Shown: one piece after another, positions 259 through 54,327 of the stretch
Numbering within the stretch: position 1 is the stretch's first letter
Layout: each line of letters starts with the position of its first letter
Notes under the pieces: model-generated
Told to the model about the DNA's origin: nothing
The model's input: the letters and a program-made list of their open reading frames with translations, nothing else
Databases searched by the model: none
Assembly: GCA_021513695.1 (NCBI GenBank)
Contig: CP084166.1
Location: forward strand, 32,001-96,000
DNA from: Candidatus Heimdallarchaeum aukensis
Lineage (GTDB): Archaea; Asgardarchaeota; Heimdallarchaeia; Heimdallarchaeales; Heimdallarchaeaceae
Direction of reading: 5' to 3'
Length of the DNA stretch: 64,000 nucleotides
Position numbers and translations under genes: made by a program

Positions 259-3147
259 ATGGCTATCAAAACCAAAAAAAACTCCACAAAGAAGAATTTA
301 ATTACTGTTTTTGTAATTTTCTTGGTTTGTTTTAGTTTTATAAATTGTTTAACCTCTAACTTGTTAACTGTAGTAGCTTCAGGAAGCGGAGATTTTCCAC
401 CTCCAAGTAGTGGAGAATGGACAATATCTCAAGAAACAATAGTTAATTCTGAAGTTATTTATATTAATGATTCAGTTTCAATAGAAAGTGGAGGATCTTT
501 AGTATTAGAAAATTGTGTAATAGAAATGAATGGTAATGAAGATGACAAAGCTAATTTTATAGTTAATAATAATGGTAATCTTACAATAATTAATTCTAAA
601 ATAGAAGCTTTTTCTGATTATTCATGGTACATCGAAGCAGAAGAAGGAGCTTCACTTAAAATTACTGACTCAACCCTAATAAACTTCAAAGGAAGCCAAT
701 ATACATCAGTAATTACACTCTATAACAATTATTCTGAAATTACAAACAATAGTATCTCAAACTTCAAATATAAAGCCATTTTTGCTAGATTTACTAGTCA
801 TCATAATAATATTACAAAAAACAAAATAAGTGGAGGGCTTGTTGGTTTTGAAGTAGTCGATGGATGGTACAACGAGATAAATGATAATGAGTTTCACTTA
901 CTATCACAATTTGCGATTGCTATTAATAATGGTAGTTTTTCAAATATTCTTCGAAATAAAATATTTAATGTTTCTTCTATCGCAATCAATTTCCAAAAAT
1001 CAAAGAATGTTTTATGCAATAACAACAATATTTCTACGTCTAAAACTGCAATTGAGTGCTATTCAATCTATAATAGTAGTATCTCTAATAATATGTTCTC
1101 TAATATTCATGATTATTCAATTAGAGTATATACAGGGAATAATGTCACAATATCAAACAATTCAATTGATAATAGCGATTTAGCAAAAGGCATTATTAAT
1201 TCAGCTATTAGCCTGAGTGCGTGTAATAATTTTTCTATTAATGAAAATTCAATAATAAATACCCCAAGAACAGCTCTAGAAATTTTAAGTTCAACAAATT
1301 GTAGAATTTTTAACAATGTTTTTTCCATTAATAATTACTCTATCTTTATCTCTAGTTCTAATTATCTTGAAATTAAAAACAATTTACTATCTTATTCGAA
1401 TGATTATTCTATGTGGTTTATTAAATCAGATTTTTCATTGTTTGAAAACAACACAGTTAATTTTGGTCAATCTTGTGGAATTAGACTAAGTAGCTGTAAC
1501 AATAATTCTATATTAAGGAACATCATATTCAATAATAGTAAATATGGTATCGATATTTCTTCAAGTAATAATAATACGATACTGGAAAATGTTTTTGTTT
1601 TAAACAATAATGGTTCTATTCAAGCTTATGATAATGGATTAAATAATAGCTGGTATAGTAATTTAGAATCTGTTGGTAATTTTTGGAGTGATAATAATGG
1701 ATCATCTTTCTATTTAATAAATGGTGAATCAGGTTCTATGGATATTTTTGCGAATTATTCTGATTACGATAAAGATTTTATTCCTGATTATTATGAACTT
1801 GAAGTTGGTTTAGATATAACAATAAATGATGCTAATGACGACTTAGATGGGGATGGTTTGTCAAACTTCGAAGAATTTACTCTGGGTACTTTTCCTAATG
1901 ATCCTGATAGCGATGATGATGGTTTAATTGATTCAGTAGAAGTAGACTTGAAAACTGATCCTATGTCTAATGATACAGACAATGACAACCTTATTGATGG
2001 GTTAGAAATTCAATATGGATGTGACCCCTTTTCAAATGATACAGACATGGATGGACTAGATGACTGGTCAGAGATATTCTACTACTTCACTGACCCTTTA
2101 GATTATGACACTGATGGTGATGGGTTATCTGACTCTGATGAAGTTTATGCATATAATACAGACCCATTGGACGCTGACACTGATGATGATGGCTTAAATG
2201 ATGTAACTGAAGTACTAGGTTATGGTACTGATCCCAATGATGCAGATACAGATGGAGATGGATTAACAGATTACGAAGAAGTGATTGAATATTTTACTGA
2301 TCCTACGGATGTTGATACTGATGGTGATGGTTTAACAGATTATGAAGAGGTAAAATATTATGGAACAAATCCTAGGAAAGCTGACACTGATGGTGATGGA
2401 ATTTCTGACAATGATGAATTAATTCAAGGAAAAGATCCATTAGTCAATGAGAAACAAAGAAATGTAAGGATAATAATTATTGTATTTTCTGCTTTAGGTT
2501 CTGGTATACTGTTTATAGGATTAACTGTGCTGTTGATACTATTCCTGATAGAAAAGAACAAAAATAAAGAACAAGCATTGTTATCCCTTTTCAAGAAAAA
2601 AATTAGAGAACTAGAAAAGAAAATTAATATTATTGAAACAACAAAAATTGAAGAACTTATGTCTAAGACAGAAGAAAGAGCGAAAATTGATACTTTTTTC
2701 AATGAATTCCTTGAGGTTTTAGTGGACTTCGCAACATATTTTCTGGAAAATGAGGAATTAATTGAGAATAAAAAATGGTTACAAGCCAAAAAGAAGCTAA
2801 ATGAAGAATTAGATAAAGTGAGAGATTGGATTAATAAAAATCTACGTGCTCTAAAGGAATATGATATTTATGACAAACTAGTAAACCAGATAGATGGATT
2901 AGAAAATAAAGAAGAAATTAAGATTAGCAAGTTAGAAGCTTATAAGGAGATTGAAATTGCAAAAGGTATTTTGAGAGAATTCAAAAAAGTAGTAGAGAAA
3001 ACTTCTCCTTTTATCAACAAATTTTCCTATTCTACTTTAACTAAATATTGGGAGATTACAACTGAACTTATATTTGCTAATATGACACAGCTAGAAAAAA
3101 TTGAGGAAAAAATAAAAGATCTACTGGAAAGAGAGAAAACTCTATAA
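259..3147 (+). CDS. Type I membrane surface protein: N-terminal signal/anchor, parallel beta-helix (PbH1/NosD-like) repeats, thrombospondin type-3-like Ca-binding repeats, single TM helix, ~210-aa K/E-rich cytoplasmic coiled-coil tail
   Basis: 962-aa ORF. N-terminal hydrophobic stretch [18 protein letters not shown]. About 500 aa of N/I/S-rich beta-helix repeats ([51 protein letters not shown]). DxDxDGLxDxxE repeats ([36 protein letters not shown]). [29 protein letters not shown] followed by KNKNK and a heptad-like E/K-rich C-terminus. Confidence 0.85.
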
Positions 3148-3497: not shown

Positions 3498-6400
3498 TTA
3501 TTTTCTAGATCTATTTGTTTTTATTGCAAGAATGGTCAAGCCTAAGAGTCCTAGAACGAAATAGAGGAAACTGAATGGATTTTTGGTTGTAGTCTCTTCT
3601 GGATGACTGTTTGAGTCAATAGGGTTAAAACCATTAGACGCTTCGTATCCATCAGTCCAACCATCTCCATCAGTGTCATTATTATGAGGATCAGTATTCC
3701 AATAGAATTCATCTCTATTAGTTAAACCATCTTCATCAGGATCTTCATTAGCATCATCTACTAAAGGATCTAAGTTGTTGTCTACTTCCCAACCATCAGG
3801 CATACCATCATCGTCGGTATCACTGTCAGTAGGGTCGGTGTTATTTGTATATTCTCCTAGATTTGATAAACCATCACTGTCTTTATCATCAGACCCATCA
3901 TCTGTTAATGGGTTTAATTCATATTTTAGTTCCCATCCATCGTCCATTCCATCTCCATCAGTATCTGCGTCAGTGCTTTGAGTGCCTAAAACTACATCTT
4001 CAAGGATATCATCTAAACCGTCTCCATCTATATCAGTTCCACTTATTGGATAAAGATCGACTGAAGAAGCCGTTCCTTGAATATTGGTATAAGTTCCTGT
4101 TGTTCCATTGTAGTCTGACCAATAGTTACCTACTTTTATTTCATCATTATACCATAGATTATTTGACCCATCATCTATAGCTAAAGTAATTTGGTCAAAG
4201 AATAAATAAGAAGCTGAAACGAAATAATTTTGATAGATTAGAGCATTAGAAATCGTAGAAGATAGTGAGATTAAGCAATAAATTTGCCTAATTTCTCCAT
4301 TAATATCAATTATGTCGAATATTTTATTGTACGTAATAATTGCTCCATCAATATCTCCATCTAAACGAATCCCTGCATTAGATACCGTGTTTTCTATGAT
4401 ATTTATAACATTTCTAGTAATCTCGAGATTTTCCCATTGTCCACGAATGTATATTCCTATAGTTCCTCCAGAATTTATTTCATTGTTGTCTATAACAAAA
4501 TTATTTCCTCCATCATTGGCGAAATAAATACCACTGTAAGATGATCCTAGATTTGTTGTTATTTGGTTATATGAGATAGTTATATTGTTGAAGATATTAC
4601 CACTAGCAACATAAATTCCTTTATTACAGTTGCTTATTTGGCTATTAGTTATTATTACATTGTCTACTTTTCTAGCATAATCAGCATAAAGTTCAATTCC
4701 TGAATCTACATTGGAGATGATGGTGTTATTTATTATTAAGCCGTCTGCGGCATAGACATCAATAGCGATTTCTTCATAATTTGATATTATTACATTTTTT
4801 ATTGTAAGATTTTCACTATCAAAAATATATATTGCTTTTGTTGATGTACCATCATGTAAATTTAGGTCTTCAAGAAAAACATTTTTTGAAGTATCAATAC
4901 TTATACTTCCATGTTCAATCTCTGCATTTACAAAAGTAATATTGGTAACTTCGTAAAAGTTTGAGGTACCTGAAAGGGTGTTACTTGTTATTTCGAAATT
5001 ACTAGAATAAGAAATGTAAAACGAGGTATTGGATGACAATATAGCATTATTTGTTATTTCTGTGAACTTTTCTGGCAGATTTGCAATAGTAAAAGCTCTA
5101 TCTACATTTTCAATATAATTGTTGGTAATGTATGTATTTCCTTCCAAAGCGTTACCATAAGAGGAAGTTATTGTGAAAACTTTTTCTGAATCTGAAATAT
5201 CGTTATTATCAAAAGTGACATTACCCACGTAAATTAGATCAAAAGCGGTATTATTAGCGTCTACTATCTCATTATTCACTATTGTAATATTATCATTTAT
5301 TACATAATTTGTGTTATATTTTTTATTTATATCAAGACCGTAAGATACACCTTCTATTATGTTATCTTTAAAAGTCAGAGTAATATTTGCAGTAGTAGAA
5401 TAATCTAAACACATTCCTTTATTTGCTTCATTAATAGTATTTCCTGTCACATTTAATGATTTCGTGTCATATACTATAATTCCATTATAGGCGTTGATAA
5501 ACTCGTTAGAAATTATAATTATTTCTTCATCAGCATATTGATCAATAGGATTCATAATATAAATCGCATTATCGTAAATATTTTCGAAACCGTTACCGGA
5601 AACAGTAATACTTTTTGAATCTTTAATTAAAATTCCTAAATCTGTATTTGATATAGAAAGTGATTTAATGTTAATATTAGTACAATCAATTAGAAATATC
5701 TGACCATAAATGTTAGTGTCAATATTTTTCGTATCGTTGCTAACAAAATAACCTACTTCTTTATTATTTACTTTGTTTCCCTTTACTATTATTGTATTAG
5801 CTTTTTCTTTAAGTGGTGCTAAAAACATCCCATCATTTACTAAAGTATTATTAACAATCTCAATAGTATCTGTTGTTTCCTTAGCAAGATAGATTCCATA
5901 TCCTTTATTTGACTCTATTGAATTATTTGCTATTATTTCATCATTTGATCCACCATTAATTAACAATCCAATATCATCGTTATTATTTATTGAATTATTT
6001 GCAATAGTAATAAAGTCTCCAGTAATATCTATACCTTTATTGTTGAATGAACAGTTATTTCCAGTTATAATTACGTTGTTTGAACCAGTTGAATAAATCC
6101 CTGCGTTACTATTAGATGAACAGGTATTATTTGCAATTATTGCGTTATTAACACCGTAAATGTTTATTCCATTATTACTTCCTGTTATGGTATTATTTAT
6201 TATCTTCTGACTATTAGTCATATAAACATTAATTCCATCTTCATTTCCACTTACAGTGTTTGATTCAATAGTTGCGATTCCATCAGCCACAGATACAATA
6301 TATATTCCCTTTCTAGATGCTTCAATAGAACAATTGACTATCTTAAAGTAAGCTGTTACGCTTAAACTATGAATATAAATTCCATAGTCTGATGATGTCT

Positions 6401-6614
6401 GTATTTTTAAGTTACTGATTATGTAAGGATCGTCTACTGTACCTGCTCCATCAACAACACCATTAGCTGAAGTAAAATCACTATCTGAAGCAATTACTAT
6501 TGGGTCATGTGTTGTGTATATTTTCAGTTTAGACTGTACGTTATTTAAACTTACAATCAATCCACTGCTAATTACAAGCATTATTAAAAACAATGATTTA
6601 TAGTTTTTCATCAA
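3498..6614 (-). CDS. Secreted/anchored surface protein: signal peptide, long parallel beta-helix repeat region, TSP3-like Ca-binding repeats, C-terminal TM + basic tail (PGF/PEF-CTERM-like archaeal sorting anchor)
   Basis: 1038-aa ORF. N-terminus MMKNYKSLFLIMLVISSGLIVSLNNVQS. Beta-helix repeats such as NNTITGSNNGINIYG and NNTCSSNSNAGIYSTGSNNVIITGNNCSFNNKGIDITG. C-terminal DxDxDG repeats (DTDGDGMDDGWE, DSDTDDDGMPDGWE, DTDGDGWTDGYE). Ends NPFSFLYFVLGLLGLTILAIKTNRSRK. Convergent with the 259-3147 gene. Confidence 0.85.
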   Translation of the reverse strand: MMKNYKSLFLIMLVISSGLIVSLNNVQSKLKIYTTHDPIVIASDSDFTSANGVVDGAGTVDDPYIISNLKIQTSSDYGIYIHSLSVTAYFKIVNCSIEASRKGIYIVSVADGIATIESNTVSGNEDGINVYMTNSQKIINNTITGSNNGINIYGVNNAIIANNTCSSNSNAGIYSTGSNNVIITGNNCSFNNKGIDITGDFITIANNSINNNDDIGLLINGGSNDEIIANNSIESNKGYGIYLAKETTDTIEIVNNTLVNDGMFLAPLKEKANTIIVKGNKVNNKEVGYFVSNDTKNIDTNIYGQIFLIDCTNINIKSLSISNTDLGILIKDSKSITVSGNGFENIYDNAIYIMNPIDQYADEEIIIISNEFINAYNGIIVYDTKSLNVTGNTINEANKGMCLDYSTTANITLTFKDNIIEGVSYGLDINKKYNTNYVINDNITIVNNEIVDANNTAFDLIYVGNVTFDNNDISDSEKVFTITSSYGNALEGNTYITNNYIENVDRAFTIANLPEKFTEITNNAILSSNTSFYISYSSNFEITSNTLSGTSNFYEVTNITFVNAEIEHGSISIDTSKNVFLEDLNLHDGTSTKAIYIFDSENLTIKNVIISNYEEIAIDVYAADGLIINNTIISNVDSGIELYADYARKVDNVIITNSQISNCNKGIYVASGNIFNNITISYNQITTNLGSSYSGIYFANDGGNNFVIDNNEINSGGTIGIYIRGQWENLEITRNVINIIENTVSNAGIRLDGDIDGAIITYNKIFDIIDINGEIRQIYCLISLSSTISNALIYQNYFVSASYLFFDQITLAIDDGSNNLWYNDEIKVGNYWSDYNGTTGTYTNIQGTASSVDLYPISGTDIDGDGLDDILEDVVLGTQSTDADTDGDGMDDGWELKYELNPLTDDGSDDKDSDGLSNLGEYTNNTDPTDSDTDDDGMPDGWEVDNNLDPLVDDANEDPDEDGLTNRDEFYWNTDPHNNDTDGDGWTDGYEASNGFNPIDSNSHPEETTTKNPFSFLYFVLGLLGLTILAIKTNRSRK

Positions 6615-34618: not shown

Positions 34619-34709
34619 TTATCGTATAGTACTCTTTAGAGTTCTGGGATTGGAATTGGGGCTATTATTTCCTGGAGTAAGTAATTGAAAATTGAAAAGA
34701 AGTGTAAAA

Positions 34710-37700
34710 ATGAAAAAAAGTAAAATTAAAGTTATTTCTATTATCGCTATTTTTCTTCTCATCTTGAACGTCTCGACGATATACGTTCAAGGTCAGATGG
34801 TAGGTAATGAAACTAAATTAATGATGACTGGAAATCCTACAGAAGTTTATGAAGATCAGATAGCGATTCTGTATGATCCATTTAATGATATGACAAGAGA
34901 ACTAGCAAATTCGATTTATGAGACTGTTCATATGTTTTATTCTAACGTGAAAATGGTCAAAGTTTTCAATTTAGATTCATTTAACAGAGCTTTTTATGAT
35001 GATGATTGGATTAAAATCTATGTTTTCGACTCTGACTTAAAAGGAATAAAATTTGCTGGTTGGACAATGTCATGGAGAAAACTAACTGGATACTACAATG
35101 TTTTCAAAGATACAAGGCACATTGGAGTTTATGGAAACTCATACAAGATGGGTCCATATCTTAAGACTGAAAACTGTTATATAGAAAATACAGAGATTCT
35201 AGATTATCGTATTGCTTACATTCATGTATTGTGGTCATTATATGATATTTTTACAGAAAAAGAAGATGAAATTCTTCAACAAATAGGAGAAAATTTCAAA
35301 TTAATAGCAATTAAATATTTTGGAGATTCATTTGAAGAAATAATGTCTGCCGAGTTTGATCCACAAGGATTAGGTGTTGTTGACCCAAAAAAGGCAGAAG
35401 AAAGATTACAAGATTCAATGGACCAATATCCAAAGAGATTAAATAAAGTTAATCCATATACGGGTGAGTTAGTTGATCCAACAGCAGAGATTGAAGGATT
35501 TAATCCTGTAATGGATATTAAACCCAAAGCAGCGATAGATGAAGATGACATTGTTTTAGGTGAGTTTCCGTTCTTATCTTCGATTCCTGGAGCTGCAGGT
35601 GACGTTATTAAAATAATTTTAGAGTTTATAGGTGTCGAGATACCAGAAGGTTTATTGACTGTAGGTAAAGAATATGGGGGGCAGATCGTCGCAATAATTA
35701 AAGAGATACCTAAAATTATTGGTTTCTTTAAGGATCCAAGTGCAAGTAGTGCTATTGAACTATTTTTTGATGTAGCAAAAGAAATGTTTCCCAGTATAGA
35801 AGAATATAAGCCCTACTTCGATATAGTAGTGAAAGCCCTATTTTCGATAAAAGATATTGCTTCAGGGGATCTTACTCCTTTAATTGATATATCAATGGAA
35901 CTTCTACGATTTATAATTCCTGATAGTGTAGGAGATTTTGTTGACGATGTTTTTGATGCTTTAAACATATCAAGTGCCCTTTCTGATATTATTAGTGGAG
36001 TTACTAATGTTGGTGATTATCTTAAGAGTTTTCTCAATAGGCAACTAATTACAAATTTAATGAAGAAATTTATTGAACAGACTTTAGATCTAGGGGGAGA
36101 ATCCCAAAAATGGATAGATACCATTTCAGAGATTATTATGATTGCTTATGAAATTGCCAGCACTCGAGATATGGATCACATAATAGCGGATGTCTTTCCA
36201 CGATTAGGAAAATTAGTTTACAAGAACATCTTAGATATGACCTATGATGAAAATGTAGAAAATACCTTCAAAGGAATTGCTGTTGCAATTAAGATGGGTT
36301 TTGGAGCTGCTGGAATCATTGATGTTAATCTTAAGGATTCATTTATGGATTTAATAGGCTTCTTCTTCCCTGACCTCGTTGAGACAGTTAATGATGTTAA
36401 ATTCTTTGTTTCAAGTATTAGGTCTCAAATTGATTCCTTTATGGATCTTGTTAAAGATGTTTCAGAAGGTAAAAATCTAGATGTAAACAACGTTCATGAC
36501 CAAATTATATCTTTAATTACTGAGCTTAGTTCATTATCAGGTCATTCTCTCGATGCAAATAAGATAAATGTACTCTCTCAAGCTGTTTTGATGGCTTTAG
36601 CTCTAATAAATGGTGATTTTGAAGCTTTAAGTGATACTAGCTGCCTAACAAGTCTAGTTGATGGATTTCTAGAACATTTTATTGGACTAGAAGAAGGTCC
36701 TAGAGAAATTGTACAAAAGGCAATAGAAGCTGGAGCAGCTATTTTACCTTTCATTACTGGGAAAAAGAGTTTGAAAAAATATATTATGGGAAGACTTGAA
36801 GATTTTGCTGACAAATTCAAGAATCCTGGAGAAATAATTGAAAAGGTTCTTTATTATTTCCTAAGCAAGTACAACGCAAGTACTCAACTTTACCAACTTA
36901 TTGGAAAAATTGTAGGAATAGTCATTGACATCTTTTCTGGAGGATTTGACTTTTCTGTTCAAAATGTTATTCAGACAATAATCTCAATGGCAGTTGTAGT
37001 TTTGAACATGTTAGATGTCAATATTCCGTTAGAAGCAATGTACAAGAGTTTTCAACTTCTATGGGAAGAGGGGCCAGAATTTTCCAATGTTGTAAAAGTA
37101 GTTCAAGATATTATGGGATTACTTGGAGGAAGCATTGACCCAACAATTAAAACTACTGTAGAAACAGTTCTTACTTTTCTAGGAGGAGCAAAGAATATCT
37201 TCAAAGATGGAATAAAATGGATAATGAACCAACTTGTAGGTTGGGCAGCAGGGCAGATTGCTAATTTATTAAATATGCTTACTGATAAATTAAATGAACT
37301 GTTCCAATCTCTTGGTGATTTGGTAAGTTATGATTCTGAATTCCCAATTGGTTTCGGAAGTTTTACTGCCTTCCAGATGCGAGTATTCTTCTCTTTAAGT
37401 CCTGGATTCGAAATTAACCCTGAACCAATTCAAGAGCTCATTATGAGTATGATTTTTGATGGGTCAAAGGTTTTTGATCTCGATAATATCGGAGAATTGT
37501 TTAAGCTTATCTTAAAATCAATTTCAATTATTCCTATTTTCAAAGCTGGACTTGAAATCAAAGCAGGAACGTCTGGAAAGAACGACTTAATGAAGATGCT
37601 CCTTGATTCTCTTGGTCTGGAACTTTCATTCTCTGGCTCTGCAGGACTAACACTGCAATTAATGAAGATTTCTAATGGTAAAATAAGTACTAGTGATTTC

Positions 37701-40700
37701 TTCAAAGTAATAGAATTCTTCTTTAAATTCCAGATATCAATAGCTAAAACATTCCCATTAGCAGAATTTCTAGGTCCAGGAGGAGCAGTTTTAGCTAAAG
37801 TTGCAGAATTCTTAGGTTTAGGTGGAATTTACCTAAAGATAGAGTTCTTTATAGCAATAGAAATTGTTAAACGATGTGAGACACCTACTCAGAAGGCTGC
37901 AGATATTTTAACAATTGTAATAGGAATAGGTGTTTCTGTAATTATTGATATCGACTTGGTAATTGTTGGAATAAAAATAACTATAGGTTTTGTAGTGACG
38001 CTGACGTTTATCCAGGACTTCTTGGCGGACGCACCGCTGCAAGTGATACTCGAGATAGAGTTCACTGTAGCGGTGAAACTGACGTTCTTGTTCGTCGACT
38101 GGACAGGAACAGCGTCATGGGGTCCAGATCCAATTTATCTGGCAGGAGGACCGGATGATGAAAGCACAAAAGACGAAATGAGCGGCTTGGACGCAGATGG
38201 GGATGGGTTACCTGATTCATATGAGTTAGGAGTTCCAGGAATGAAAGTAGACAGCGATGACAGTGATGGAGACGGTTTATCAGACCAATTCGAAGTGAAA
38301 ACGAGTAAAACAGACCCTATCACTGCAGATTCTGACGATGATGGTCTAGATGATTACATGGAATATGAAGTCTTAAAGACCAATCCTCTACAAGTAGATA
38401 GTGACTATGATGGTTTAACTGACTATGAAGAAGTTGTTATCTATGGAACTGATCCTAATGCACAAGATACAGATGGTGATCAATTAGATGACTATTACGA
38501 AGTAAATACTGCATGGAATATCACTGGAATAACTCCAAGTGTAAGATTTGTTACAATTGGGGGAGTAGAGTATAAAGATCATACTGATCCTCTTAATCCT
38601 GATACTGATGGTGATGGACTTCTAGATGGACAAGAAGGAGAATTTGGGGCTTATTATGGACCAGAATTGTATAACACTTCAGACCCAAGTTGGGATCCCT
38701 ATCCAATATTCTACAATCAAGGATATACTCATCCATTAGATAATGATACCGATGATGATTCTTATAAACAATTAGCAAATGGAACTATAGCTCCAGATCG
38801 TCAGTTCTTAATCTATATGTCTGATAAGGTAGAAATAGATGGACAATGGGTTATTTTCATTGAAGATGATGAATTAATGGGTAGAGTAGTTAGAACTAAC
38901 CCAATTAACCCTGATACTGATGGTGATTCAGCAGTAATGGATAAATCTTGGAGAGGTGATGGGGCTCCTCTTGACTTTTTCCTGAAGTCTGATGGTTACG
39001 AACTCTGGTTAGATCCGCCGACAGACCCGAATGACGCGGATATGGACGATGATGGATTAATTGACGGTTTAGAGGGTTGGGGTAATAAGATCAGTAATCA
39101 TACTGATCCTCGTAATCCTGATACTGATGGTGATGGACTTGGAGACCTGCAAGATATTCTACTCGGTTCGGATCCTTTGAACCCTGATAGTGATATGGAT
39201 GGAATTCTAGATGGTGAGGAGTTCTTCAAGTATGGAACTAACCCCGCTTATGAAGATACAGATCATGATGGGCTTTTGGATGGTGAGGAAGTTTATCTAT
39301 TCCACACAAACCCTCTGGCGGTAGATAGCGATGGAGATGGGATAGATGATGGAATGGAGGTATTAGTTTATGGTTCAGACCCGATGGATGAAGATATGGA
39401 TAACGACGGTCTAACAGACTGGGAAGAGATTTTCTACTACTTTACCAATCCTAGAGATTACGACTCAGATGATGATGGTCTAAGTGATGCTATGGAGGTT
39501 TTAGATGAATATGCTATATACACTGACCCATTGAATTGGGACTCTGATAATGATTCAATCACATATCCTAATGAAAACGGAAATTATACTTTCCCACTTT
39601 CTGATGGAGATGAAGTACTAATTTACGGAACTGACCCATTGACAAGCGATACTGATGGAGATGGATTGCACGATTCGTTTGAACTATATCTTGGTTCAGG
39701 TTTAATTTACAACTTTACTCCTGTACCTTTGGATCCGTTATCTAACGATACTGATGGAGATGGAATATATGATGCAAATGAATACCACATTGCAAATGTC
39801 TCTAACATCATTTATCCTTATGTTAGTTTTATCATCACCCAACCTTACAATACTTCTCCAGTAGATCCAGACTCTGATGATGACGGGATTATCGATGGAG
39901 ACGAAGTCTATGTATATGGAACTATGCCAGATATGAAAGATACAGATGGAGATGGACTAGACGATTGGAGTGAACTTAATATTATGTATACTAACCCTCT
40001 GAGTTCGGATACGGACAATGACTATCTGACAGATTGGGAAGAATGGTATGCGGGTTTTGAACATCCAGGATATCTACTTGATCCTAACGACCCTGATTAT
40101 GATAATGATATGCTGCCAGATGGGCCAGAGTTACTACTTTACGGTTCTAATCCTAATAATGCCTATGAGATTGATCCAAGTTCAGGAAAAGTCGATGGTC
40201 TGTTGATGGATTGGGACCATGATGGTCTAGAAGATGGTTTAGAGTTCTTTGTATACAACACTAGTTATGTAGCAGGAGGAGGAGTCACCCAGCCAGATAG
40301 TGATAGAGATGGTTTGATGGATGGTGCAGAAGTATATGTTCATGGTACAGTCCCCACGAATTGGGATACTGACAATGATACATATAGTGATGGATTAGAA
40401 GTGATGTTAGGACTAGATCCTCTTACATATACAACAGAAGAGGAATTTATAGCAGCTCTATCTGCAAATCAAGATATGCTAGAAGCAGGAGTACTAGTTA
40501 TCTCACCAATAGAAGGTGGAATTTACTCTCCTTCTAACTATACTTTCATCCTCTATAACGTGACAGAACTACTGGGCGTACAATATCAAATGAAGAAGAA
40601 CAAACAAGATTTCGGAGACAACATGAGTATGTACTATGATGATGTTTCAAGGACGTGGATAACTCAAGGAGATTATATTGGACCTGGAGATTATATCGTC

Positions 40701-49113: not shown

Positions 49114-49791
49114 ATGTTGATGGTACCTACTCAGATGAAAAAAATAACCATACTAGGGACAACTGGTAGTGGAAAGACCACCTTTTTAGAAGCTTTATTT
49201 GGTGATTTTGAAAAAAATGATGTTAAAAGAGATTTGAGTAAAGAAAAAAGTTCAAATTGTGATTTTATTCCTTTGAAAAATAATACATTCAAAGAAAGTA
49301 CAACAACAATAAGTTTGAATGTCATTAATTCATTGCTTTATTTGACTACATTTAATCGATTAGGTTTAGAAAAGTTCGAAAATAGAGACAATATTGACTT
49401 TGAAAATGTTGAAGAGATTTATCAAATAGTTTTCAATGATCCTGCAGGACAAGAAAGATTTGATTTCATGCAAGAGATAGCAGTAAGAGGAGCAAACCTA
49501 GTAATTATAATGGCTGATGGCACAAATATCTCGAGTTTAGAAAAAGTAGTTCATTATATTTCGTTGGTAAAAATTGAAGAAAATCTATCTAAAAAGAAAA
49601 TACCGACTATTATTTTCATCAACAAATCTGATTTAAAGGAAAAGGGTGTTTATTTAGGAAAAAATGTAGCTGAGCAGATTATTTATTCAAGCATTCTTGA
49701 TGAGAAATTACTTATTTATGAAACTTCTAACCTTAAGAGAGAAACATATGATGAACCTTTGAGGATTATTTTTAACTATCTTTCATACTAA
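49114..49791 (+). CDS. Ras-superfamily (Rab/Ras-like) small GTPase
   Basis: 225-aa ORF. P-loop GTTGSGKTT. Switch II DPAGQERF (Rab/Ras DTAGQE). NKSD (NKxD). About 70-aa insertion between G1 and G3. Real start may be the internal Met (MKKITILG) at 49135. Confidence 0.75.
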   Translation: MLMVPTQMKKITILGTTGSGKTTFLEALFGDFEKNDVKRDLSKEKSSNCDFIPLKNNTFKESTTTISLNVINSLLYLTTFNRLGLEKFENRDNIDFENVEEIYQIVFNDPAGQERFDFMQEIAVRGANLVIIMADGTNISSLEKVVHYISLVKIEENLSKKKIPTIIFINKSDLKEKGVYLGKNVAEQIIYSSILDEKLLIYETSNLKRETYDEPLRIIFNYLSY

Positions 49792-53429: not shown

Positions 53430-53562
53430 ATAAAGATTAGATTAAGATAAAATAAAAAAGGTTACTAATTTTTTTTCTTATTTTTTAAATTGTCCAGATT
53501 TTTTGAGTGAACGTTTTAAATAAAAATTTAAAAGTAAGCGTTAATGAACGAACTCTAGAAAA

Positions 53563-54327
53563 ATGAAACAAGAAAACTCTGTTCCTTTCTTCACTGTTGC
53601 TGCAGGATTTAGCAATTATACTCGAGAATATCCTGCATATGTTGAAAAATTTGGAAAAGAAAATGTAGAATGGGCTTGTTATGCTGATAAATATACAACT
53701 GAAGAGCATATTGAGGAAATAAAGACACATTTTCCAAATGGTCGTCCATTTATTTTAATTGGTCATTCCTTAGGTGGATCATTAATTATTGAGATGTTGG
53801 CTAGAGAAAAGATGCCATCTGAGTGTAAAGGTATTGTTTTAGTAGGTGCAAGTAGAAGATTGTATCCTCACCCTGCTTTGAATTTTGCCTTCAGGTTGCC
53901 TGTTCCTCTCATTTATGCTTTCTCAGCTTTTCTTATGTTGATTTTTCCAATATTTTTAGTTGCTTACAAGTTCAACTTGCATAAAGCTTTTCATGCATCT
54001 TTTGAGGGATTTTGGAGATTAGTTGAAAATGGAGCAAAAAGGATGAAGAAAGAGTTTAACTATTGTTTGAGAGATATAGGAAAAAATGTTAGCGATATTC
54101 TTGAAGAAAATAAACACATTCCTGTACTTTTCATCAGATTAAAAAAAGACATAATGATAAGAGAAGAGGACGTTGAAGAAACAAAAAGCTTTTTCCACAA
54201 GCACAAAGAAAGAATTATTCCAATTGACACTATACATCTAAACCACGAGTTTGATAGTGTTGTAGCTGACATAATCAATGAAGAATTACCCTTTTTTGGT
54301 TTTGAAAGTTTCCAAAAAGGGAACTAA
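53563..54327 (+). CDS. Alpha/beta-hydrolase fold protein
   Basis: 254-aa ORF with nucleophile elbow GHSLGG and C-terminal Asp/His candidates (PIDTIHLNHEFD). Confidence 0.6.
   Translation: MKQENSVPFFTVAAGFSNYTREYPAYVEKFGKENVEWACYADKYTTEEHIEEIKTHFPNGRPFILIGHSLGGSLIIEMLAREKMPSECKGIVLVGASRRLYPHPALNFAFRLPVPLIYAFSAFLMLIFPIFLVAYKFNLHKAFHASFEGFWRLVENGAKRMKKEFNYCLRDIGKNVSDILEENKHIPVLFIRLKKDIMIREEDVEETKSFFHKHKERIIPIDTIHLNHEFDSVVADIINEELPFFGFESFQKGN

Follow-up and report, generated by a model that had tools for sequence, protein, structure and literature searches.

Here we show that a block of 36 rare, mostly G/C-ending codons inside a giant surface-protein gene of the Asgard archaeon Candidatus Heimdallarchaeum aukensis is a compositional outlier, is under selection at its synonymous sites, recurs at the same position in other lineages, and has a predicted mRNA structure beyond what codon-level null models produce. 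The block, referred to here as the island, lies in a window of 64,000 nt of contig CP084166.1, and all positions below are window positions. The organism comes from vent material of the Pescadero Basin, from which it was enriched at 37-40 °C (PMC8813620), and its genome is closed at 3.08 Mb. We propose, with about as much doubt as confidence, that the island is a selected rare-codon cluster with mRNA structure that acts as a translation brake at a domain junction. On this proposal elongation would be slowed jointly by the rare G/C-ending codons and the structure, and the slowing would be the effect that is selected. The features on which the argument turns are as follows.

34692..40913, plus strand: host gene, encoding a 2073-aa surface protein (open reading frame (ORF) list and translation).

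37995..38102, plus strand: core codon-choice island, codons 1102-1137, 108 nt, peptide VTLTFIQDFLADAPLQVILEIEFTVAVKLTFLFVDW; 28 of 36 codons end in G or C.

38103..38215, plus strand: tail of the interval first described, comprising the junction and the first TSP3-like repeat; its high G+C comes mainly from Gly, Pro, Ala and Asp codons.

38983..39065, plus strand: second patch of G/C-ending codons, younger and specific to H. aukensis; about 10 synonymous A/T-to-G/C differences and 0 amino-acid changes.

A preliminary description made from the sequence alone had pointed to an interval of roughly half G+C at 37994-38215. Its G+C content is indeed 0.523, against a window mean of 0.315 (standard deviation 0.047 over 222-nt windows; z = 4.4), and is the highest in the 64 kb. 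The switch to G/C-ending codons, which had been ascribed to the whole interval, is sharper than described within 37995-38102: codons 1090-1101 all end in A or T and the switch starts at codon 1102. The remainder, by contrast, owes its composition mostly to its amino acids. For this tail (38103 to about 38216) G+C is 0.52 against 0.48 expected from the peptide, the G+C fraction at third codon positions (GC3) is in mild excess (0.34 versus 0.21 expected), and 3 of its 10 G/C third sites differ in the sister species described below, which is the normal rate and reveals no special constraint.

Within the core the deviation is extreme. Among 17,420 windows of 36 codons in 37 ORFs the mean number of G/C-ending codons is 7.4 (standard deviation 2.7), and the best window outside the island has 16, as against 28 in the island. 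Island GC3 is 0.78 where 0.21 would be expected from the peptide and the codon usage of the window (z = 9.0), and by a score resembling the codon adaptation index the island is the rarest-codon window over 18,678 codons (z = -9.0). The codons GCG, CTG, CCG, ACG and GTG, which it uses, each make up 3-7% of their own synonymous family in the window, the first four only 3-4%. The island thus tops the 64-kb window in GC, GC3 and codon rarity alike, and the reading frame runs unbroken through it from 34692 to 40913, as had been described. The palindromes CTCGAG (38049-38054) and GTCGAC (38094-38099) and the repeated CTGACGTT (at 38001 and 38079) are all exact where the preliminary description placed them. 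The repeat is the peptide motif L-T-F encoded twice by identical rare codons, and the two XhoI/SalI palindromes are by-products of two RNA hairpins (B and C, below). A repeat search of the 64-kb window found no second copy of the island, the repeat families there being TSP3 codon repeats only. A diversity-generating retroelement was considered and dropped, as that search gave no template-repeat copy.

Comparison with the sister species provides direct information on selection. The second closed genome, that of H. endolithica (CP084167; locus L002), has 94% amino acid identity over the host gene and carries the same island (GC3 0.72-0.78), as does an independent metagenome contig from the Joint Genome Institute (JGI), L007 (Ga0180301_10006506). 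The three sequences differ at 3 of the 108 core positions. Across a 23-kb syntenic block the island lies at the 5th percentile of sister-species divergence, and it is among the least diverged parts of the gene. In a genome with so strong an A/T bias, G/C third sites are expected to turn over fast. We therefore give synonymous third positions separately by their state in H. aukensis, taken as the reference against H. endolithica.

Island core: differing G/C third sites 1/27; differing A/T third sites 2/8.

Flanks, 37500-38600: differing G/C third sites 28/66 (42%); differing A/T third sites 41/239 (17%).

Rest of host gene: differing G/C third sites 204/396 (52%); differing A/T third sites 339/1412 (24%).

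Next gene: differing G/C third sites 203/402 (50%); differing A/T third sites 373/1815 (21%).

A single change at 27 G/C sites departs strongly from the rate of the gene (binomial P = 1e-7) and of the flanks (binomial P = 7e-6; Fisher P = 1.4e-4). This indicates that the G/C states of the island's third sites are specifically preserved by purifying selection. The island is not merely a recently shared identical block, because its A/T third sites change at the background rate.

The second patch behaves differently. A smaller patch of similar character had been noted at 39011-39055, and it is real: extended to 38983-39065 it comes second among the rare-codon windows of the 64 kb (z = -4.0) and is moderately structured. 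It is, however, confined to H. aukensis, since H. endolithica and L007 both keep A/T codons there. Its 10 changes, among them GAT>GAC, TAT>TAC and GCT>GCG, are all toward G/C, with 0 in reverse. The patch is not itself conserved, and it shows that such G/C patches can arise quickly in the host gene.

A homologue search with the island-bearing segment returned one partial protein only, and ten further orthologous segments were collected through neighbouring genes and locus scans. In these other genomes a G/C-ending codon served as a proxy for a rare one. Values are GC3 at the island position and in the rest of the gene.

L009: about 50-56% amino acid identity, depending on the columns compared; island 0.73, rest 0.32.

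L013: 82% identical to L009; island 0.57, rest 0.28.

L015: Kariarchaeaceae metagenome-assembled genome; island 0.49, rest 0.23.

L001: no island; island position 0.38, rest 0.27.

L008 and L010: no island, intact 2072-codon genes; island position 0.24 in both, rest 0.19 and 0.18.

L014: no island; island position 0.35, rest 0.27.

L016: no island; island position 0.32, rest 0.26.

L017: no island; island position 0.49, rest 0.43.

The coincidence of position in the G/C-type orthologues is close. In L009 the highest-GC3 window of the 2215-codon gene consists of exactly the island codons (27/36, z = 4.5; the runner-up has 19). The top window of the 547 codons available in L013 begins 6 codons ahead of the island, and that of L015 includes the island. 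The actual codons nevertheless differ between these lineages. Between L009 and L013, G/C status is kept at 12 of 21 sites in the island versus 35 of 112 outside (P = 0.03), and synonymous swaps between G and C, normally the rarest change, number 5 of 29 in the island versus 3 of 352 outside (P = 9e-5). What has been conserved over deep time is therefore the G/C-ending status at a position and not the nucleotide sequence. An unrooted four-taxon tree of 281 flanking residues groups Heimdallarchaeum with L009 and L001 with L008/L010 (489 of 500 bootstraps), so that a single gain or loss suffices among those four lineages. The best-supported account of these sequences is that the island is an old feature of the gene family, which would have been kept in some lineages and lost in others. 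In the orthologue comparison that the preliminary description had proposed, GC3 is raised at the same codons in three more distant orthologues, and six other contigs do not have the island.

Three of these loci show irregularities of their own. L001 lacks 71 nt just upstream of the island (at about L001 505-510, equivalent to window 37858-37928), a loss that puts the gene out of frame and leaves it as two calls, and the ORF of L016 breaks some 60 codons after the island (L016 about 860-920). These breaks could reflect pseudogenes, assembly errors or something programmed. The L013 sequence is a 1.6-kb contig, JAGLOY010000192.1, labelled Candidatus Aegiribacteria and thus placed in a bacterial bin, even though its fragment shares 82% identity with the Asgard L009 protein; a binning error is probable.

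The codon island is also the site of the most stable predicted RNA fold of the window. In the minimum free energy (MFE) structure its elements are the following.

37995..38118, plus strand: predicted RNA structure, 124 nt, a closing stem and three hairpins; MFE -60 kcal/mol, 47 pairs, of which 8 are G-U.

37995..38002, plus strand: closing stem P1, 5' arm, GUGACGCU, pairing with 38111-38118.

38111..38118, plus strand: closing stem P1, 3' arm, AGCGUCAU.

38005..38031, plus strand: hairpin A, the weaker one, CGUUU/GGACG and CCAGG/CUUGG.

38032..38075, plus strand: hairpin B, 18 bp with two 1-nt bulges and loop GAGAUA; CTCGAG forms the stem top and loop.

38084..38110, plus strand: hairpin C, 11 bp including three G-U; the GTCGAC site is the loop.

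The edges of the codon island coincide with closing stem P1. Hairpin A is placed otherwise in the consensus fold and is the least certain part of the structure. Among the close sequences, H. endolithica has C changed to U in the partner arm of P1, where the pair persists as G-U, the two sister-species differences in hairpin B are an A/G in a bulge (38042) and an A/G that turns A-U into G-U (38069), and all changes within hairpins B and C either fall in a bulge or convert A-U to G-U or the reverse. Of the six pairs that vary among the three sequences, three show such one-sided, pair-keeping changes and three are broken.

RNA folding, another check proposed at the outset, was run on a 141-nt segment against two nulls of 300 recodings each. 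One permuted synonymous codons, keeping the protein and the codon pool; the other resampled third bases while keeping their G/C or A/T class. The segment has MFEs of -62, -61 and -57 kcal/mol in the three Heimdallarchaeum sequences. Codon permutation gave -44 to -47 kcal/mol (z = -4.6, -3.8 and -2.1), a null that reached the native value in 7 of 300 recodings for L007 and 0 of 300 for the other two, and class-keeping resampling gave about -41 kcal/mol (z = -4.5, -5.7 and -4.8), with 0 of 300 for all three. The fold therefore depends on the choice of G versus C and not on G+C content alone. In a 130-nt scan of the host gene the island ranks first of 235 windows (z = -5.4; best MFE outside -38.8), and among the 6,388 windows of the two strands of the 64 kb it is again at the top, with a residual z of -5.5 after regression on G+C versus -3.9 for the next best. 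The minus strand reaches only -46 kcal/mol, leaving the sense strand 14 kcal/mol more stable, and this asymmetry, together with the 8 G-U pairs among 47, points to a structure that would form in RNA rather than as a DNA cruciform. Preferential pairing of G/C over A/T third positions within the island was not significant (23/30 versus 9/14). Of the origins that the preliminary description had offered, selection for a local mRNA feature is the one supported, by purifying selection on G/C third sites, by structure beyond the synonymous nulls and by recurrence in other lineages.

The position of the island within the protein suggests what such a feature might do. Translation and hydropathy give the order of the host protein as an N-terminal hydrophobic signal or anchor, a region of about 1100 aa of unknown family that ends in a module of long beta-strands, TSP3 repeats, and a C-terminal transmembrane anchor. 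The repeats are of the bacterial calcium-binding type (TSP3_bac, Pfam PF18884, E = 4e-23), and translation, Pfam and hydropathy agree with the preliminary description that the stretch encodes the last hydrophobic segment before them. The gene probably starts at the ATG at 34710 rather than at the first base of the ORF, 34692, because the H. endolithica orthologue (L002 3798..10001) aligns from 34710. The strongest internal hydrophobic segment, aa 1075-1093 (Kyte-Doolittle value 2.49), stops 9 residues short of the island. From an alignment of 7 sequences, AlphaFold2 gave a model of aa 861-1260 (predicted local distance difference test (pLDDT) score 73, predicted template modelling score 0.50) that renders the hydrophobic segments not as transmembrane helices but as very long beta-strands, described as amphipathic.

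Predicted beta-strands, AlphaFold2 model of aa 861-1260: aa 1043-1061, 1070-1088, 1092-1109, 1117-1132 and 1136-1143.

In this model the island peptide (aa 1102-1137) runs from the end of one strand through a turn and along the following strand, forming the last long beta-hairpin before the TSP3 region; the beta-meander ends at about aa 1143 and the TSP3 region follows. The meander itself, aa 1043-1143 (37818-38120), consists of strands of 16-19 residues (pLDDT 73). Foldseek against the PDB gave only weak matches to beta-barrel meanders (template modelling score at most 0.43), and no family was assigned. These structural neighbours are beta-barrels of outer membranes and beta-domains of autotransporters, an odd result for an archaeon with one membrane.

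A model for how the island may work can be built on these observations. According to the model, rare G/C-ending codons were overprinted on an ordinary, vertically inherited coding segment and are kept there by purifying selection at synonymous sites. In Heimdallarchaeum an older rare-codon cluster would have been pushed to an extreme and reinforced by the stable 124-nt mRNA fold. The ribosome would be locally slowed both by the rare codons and by structure that needs unwinding. Such a brake would act during synthesis of the final long beta-hairpin of the N-terminal module, just before the TSP3 repeats, and decoding of the island would coincide with the exit of the hydrophobic segment aa 1075-1093 from the ribosomal tunnel. 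The pause could give the upstream module time to fold or to meet the export machinery. The preliminary description had suggested a translational pause at a membrane-insertion or domain boundary: a putative pause at a domain boundary has support from selection, structure and recurrence, and membrane insertion seems doubtful if the segments are indeed beta-strands, as modelled, rather than transmembrane helices.

Several points weigh against the translation brake. Both the pause at the island and the slow decoding of G/C-ending codons are things that we infer, and C-ending two-fold codons share GNN transfer RNAs (tRNAs) with U-ending ones and may not be slow. The structure shows 0 compensatory changes, with three close sequences only to compare, and 3 of the 6 varying pairs, all belonging to the weaker stems, are lost in one sequence. 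The fold is not kept outside the genus: L013 has z = +1.0/+0.7, L009 has a marginal fold (z = -1.9/-1.7, rank 5 of 251 in its own gene) and L015 has a fold of different architecture (z = -3.9/-2.5). Six orthologous contigs, representing about five lineages, do without the island, some of them with intact genes (L008/L010, 2072 codons), so that it is dispensable. Finally, biased gene conversion would mimic selection for G/C third sites.

A variant of the same idea is that the 124-nt, three-hairpin element is a genus-specific functional RNA device laid over an older rare-codon cluster, a suggestion we make only tentatively. Such a device could be a programmed ribosome brake, or a switch of mRNA processing or stability that sets the output of the giant surface protein. 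Two CUGACG copies compete for one partner at 38111-38118, and alternative folds would therefore be allowed. If true, this would be the first coding-sequence-embedded element of its kind described in Asgard archaea.

A functional RNA embedded in the coding sequence, an origin that the preliminary description had likewise offered, need not bear on elongation speed at all. It could be an exonuclease barrier or processing site that sets the stabilities of the two mRNA halves, a site for an RNA-binding protein, or a small RNA produced from within the gene. We consider this, the main rival, unlikely, though not negligibly so, for it would account for a fold that is the most stable on either strand of the 64 kb, sense-specific and more stable than synonymous recodings, in an element nearly invariant between two species. 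The setting would suit it too: the 6.2-kb gene runs into the start of the 8-kb gene downstream, a transcript of more than 14 kb may result, and the second G/C-rich, moderately structured patch arose recently in H. aukensis. However, the distant lineages keep G/C-ending status rather than the fold, the three close sequences hold no compensatory change, no T-run terminator follows the element, and searches for relatives were negative. Rfam gave 0 matches in the 64 kb at the gathering threshold and no match deemed credible for 401 nt around the island even at E <= 10, where only sR2 (E = 1.4) and the L19 leader (E = 7.8) appeared, both far below their gathering scores. The sR2 match would be a C/D-box small RNA at 38151-38217 on the plus strand (13.4 bits against a gathering score of 42), with a C box drawn from GAT-GAT-GA (Asp-Asp) and a D box from CCT-GAT, and was judged to be chance. 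A covariance model of the three Heimdallarchaeum sequences, run over 208 kb of window and loci, recovered only its training sequences and the orthologous site in L001, with no other copy, and did not recover the distant island-keeping orthologues L009, L013 and L015. No tRNA or transfer-messenger RNA was found in a scan of the window.

Non-adaptive bias without function, whether through GC-biased gene conversion at a local hotspot of recombination or through locally biased mutation or repair, is a less probable source of the island still. Biased conversion would also keep G/C third sites and allow swaps between G and C, the one-directional, clustered changes at 38983-39065 (10 versus 0) show A/T-to-G/C change on a short time scale, and nearby blocks of zero divergence suggest inter-species recombination. 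Such bias does not predict choices of G versus C that are worth some 20 kcal/mol over same-class recodings, nor island boundaries that match the predicted closing stem. It also needs a 108-nt hotspot fixed on the same codons in lineages that are about 50% diverged, and we know of no such fixed hotspot in archaea.

A horizontally acquired or recombinant patch from a G+C-richer homologue, not yet ameliorated, had been among the explanations first offered and is very improbable. Its boundaries are sharp, and amino acid replacements relative to L001 also run toward G/C-rich codons. Nevertheless, protein identity inside the island follows that of the gene: the identities of H. aukensis to L001, L008 and L009 are 0.68, 0.54 and 0.51 in the island and 0.72, 0.69 and 0.50 outside it, in the same order. 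Sister-species divergence is at its lowest, not elevated, with G/C sites frozen while A/T sites evolve; the only G/C-type relatives found (L009, L013 and L015) use different codons at the same positions; and there is neither a second copy nor a donor, the hairpin sequences having no match in two scans of the viral contig collection. Because of these features a foreign origin is unlikely.

An assembly or consensus chimera, also raised at first, might be suspected from the multiple displacement amplification of H. aukensis DNA before Nanopore sequencing (PMC8813620), but is excluded by the nearly base-for-base presence of the island in the separately assembled, closed H. endolithica genome and in L007; scarcely more credible is an overlapping gene constraining synonymous sites, for although one antisense frame is stop-free across the core in H. 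aukensis, H. endolithica and L009, no start-to-stop ORF spans the core in any other frame and the antisense ORFs of 44-62 aa are low-complexity and split it in different frames. Avoidance of T-runs, the archaeal terminator, was likewise dropped: it fits a few TTC and CTG choices and cannot account for 28 of 36 codons, and a few changes are enough for A/T-type orthologues to avoid T-runs.

The island is not a new type of system; it is a new and unusually clear case of a known kind, a conserved rare-codon cluster joined to coding-region mRNA structure. Conserved rare-codon clusters were reportedly described by Clarke and Clark in 2008. Where Chaney et al. (2017, PMC5438181) set out their properties, it is rarity and not sequence that is kept across homologues, in archaea, bacteria and eukaryotes. 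As in the clusters set out there (PMC5438181), the island codons are rare in the organism's own codon usage, to a degree far above that of random reverse translation, the position is kept across homologues while codon identity changes, and the cluster lies within or between small structural motifs and not in a linker. Unlike those clusters, the island is more extreme (28/36, z = -9), purifying selection on its synonymous sites is seen directly between sister species, it coincides with the most stable RNA fold of 64 kb, it is missing from about half of the lineages sampled, it belongs to an Asgard archaeon, and its effect on translation is only predicted.

Other precedents resemble it in part. 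Pechmann, Chartron and Frydman are said to have shown in 2014 that stretches of non-optimal codons after hydrophobic targeting segments promote recognition by the signal recognition particle (SRP) and membrane insertion. The island similarly starts 9 residues after the hydrophobic aa 1075-1093; unlike in those cases, the segments are here predicted to be beta-strands and not transmembrane helices (AlphaFold2), and engagement of SRP or the translocon is doubtful. Selected local mRNA structure in coding regions was reportedly found by Katz and Burge in 2003 and by Faure and colleagues in 2016, as genome-wide tendencies of a few kcal/mol. The island fold is likewise far below synonymous recodings, sense-specific and placed over ordered protein structure, but it is a single discrete 124-nt element some 15-20 kcal/mol beyond its nulls. 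Klein, Misulovin and Eddy reportedly found G+C-rich non-coding RNA genes as composition islands in A+T-rich archaeal genomes in 2002. The present island recalls these genes in its sharp rise in G+C, its stable fold and a genomic background of about 31% G+C. It differs from them in lying wholly inside an intact, conserved frame, in lacking an Rfam family, a second copy and evidence of a promoter or terminator, and in a host that grows at 37-40 °C and not at high temperature (PMC8813620).

The case cautions against reading every G+C island in an A+T-rich archaeal genome as an RNA gene, foreign DNA or a mis-assembly. It is also an unusually clean natural instance of selection on synonymous sites, in which a 36-codon block is frozen while its neighbours turn over freely and its position recurs deeply. 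With two closed genomes and enrichment cultures in existence, it offers a testable site in a close archaeal relative of eukaryotes.

The wider locus has further features. The stop of the host gene overlaps, at 40913, the start of an 8-kb ORF (40913..48922) whose 2669-aa product has FG-GAP/VCBS repeats and is identical to UJG40918.1, so that two giant genes stand in tandem (34692-48922), followed by a gene for a Ras/Arf/Roc-like small GTPase (49114-49791). This order of giant gene, giant gene and GTPase is kept in H. endolithica and in several Heimdallarchaeaceae contigs. Two other large TSP3-repeat genes, 259-3147 (plus strand) and 3498-6614 (minus strand), are convergent, and their repeat codons give rise to most of the long direct and inverted repeat families of the window. 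In the syntenic block, where H. aukensis and H. endolithica differ at 13 positions per 108 nt on average, there are no differences in 41544-42020 and 53438-54067, which suggests either recent inter-species DNA exchange or extreme constraint. Within the downstream giant gene, 47919-48026 is a mirror image of the island: a highly diverged, endolithica-GC-rich patch with 35 differences in 108 nt, 21 of which are G/C in H. endolithica and A/T in H. aukensis.

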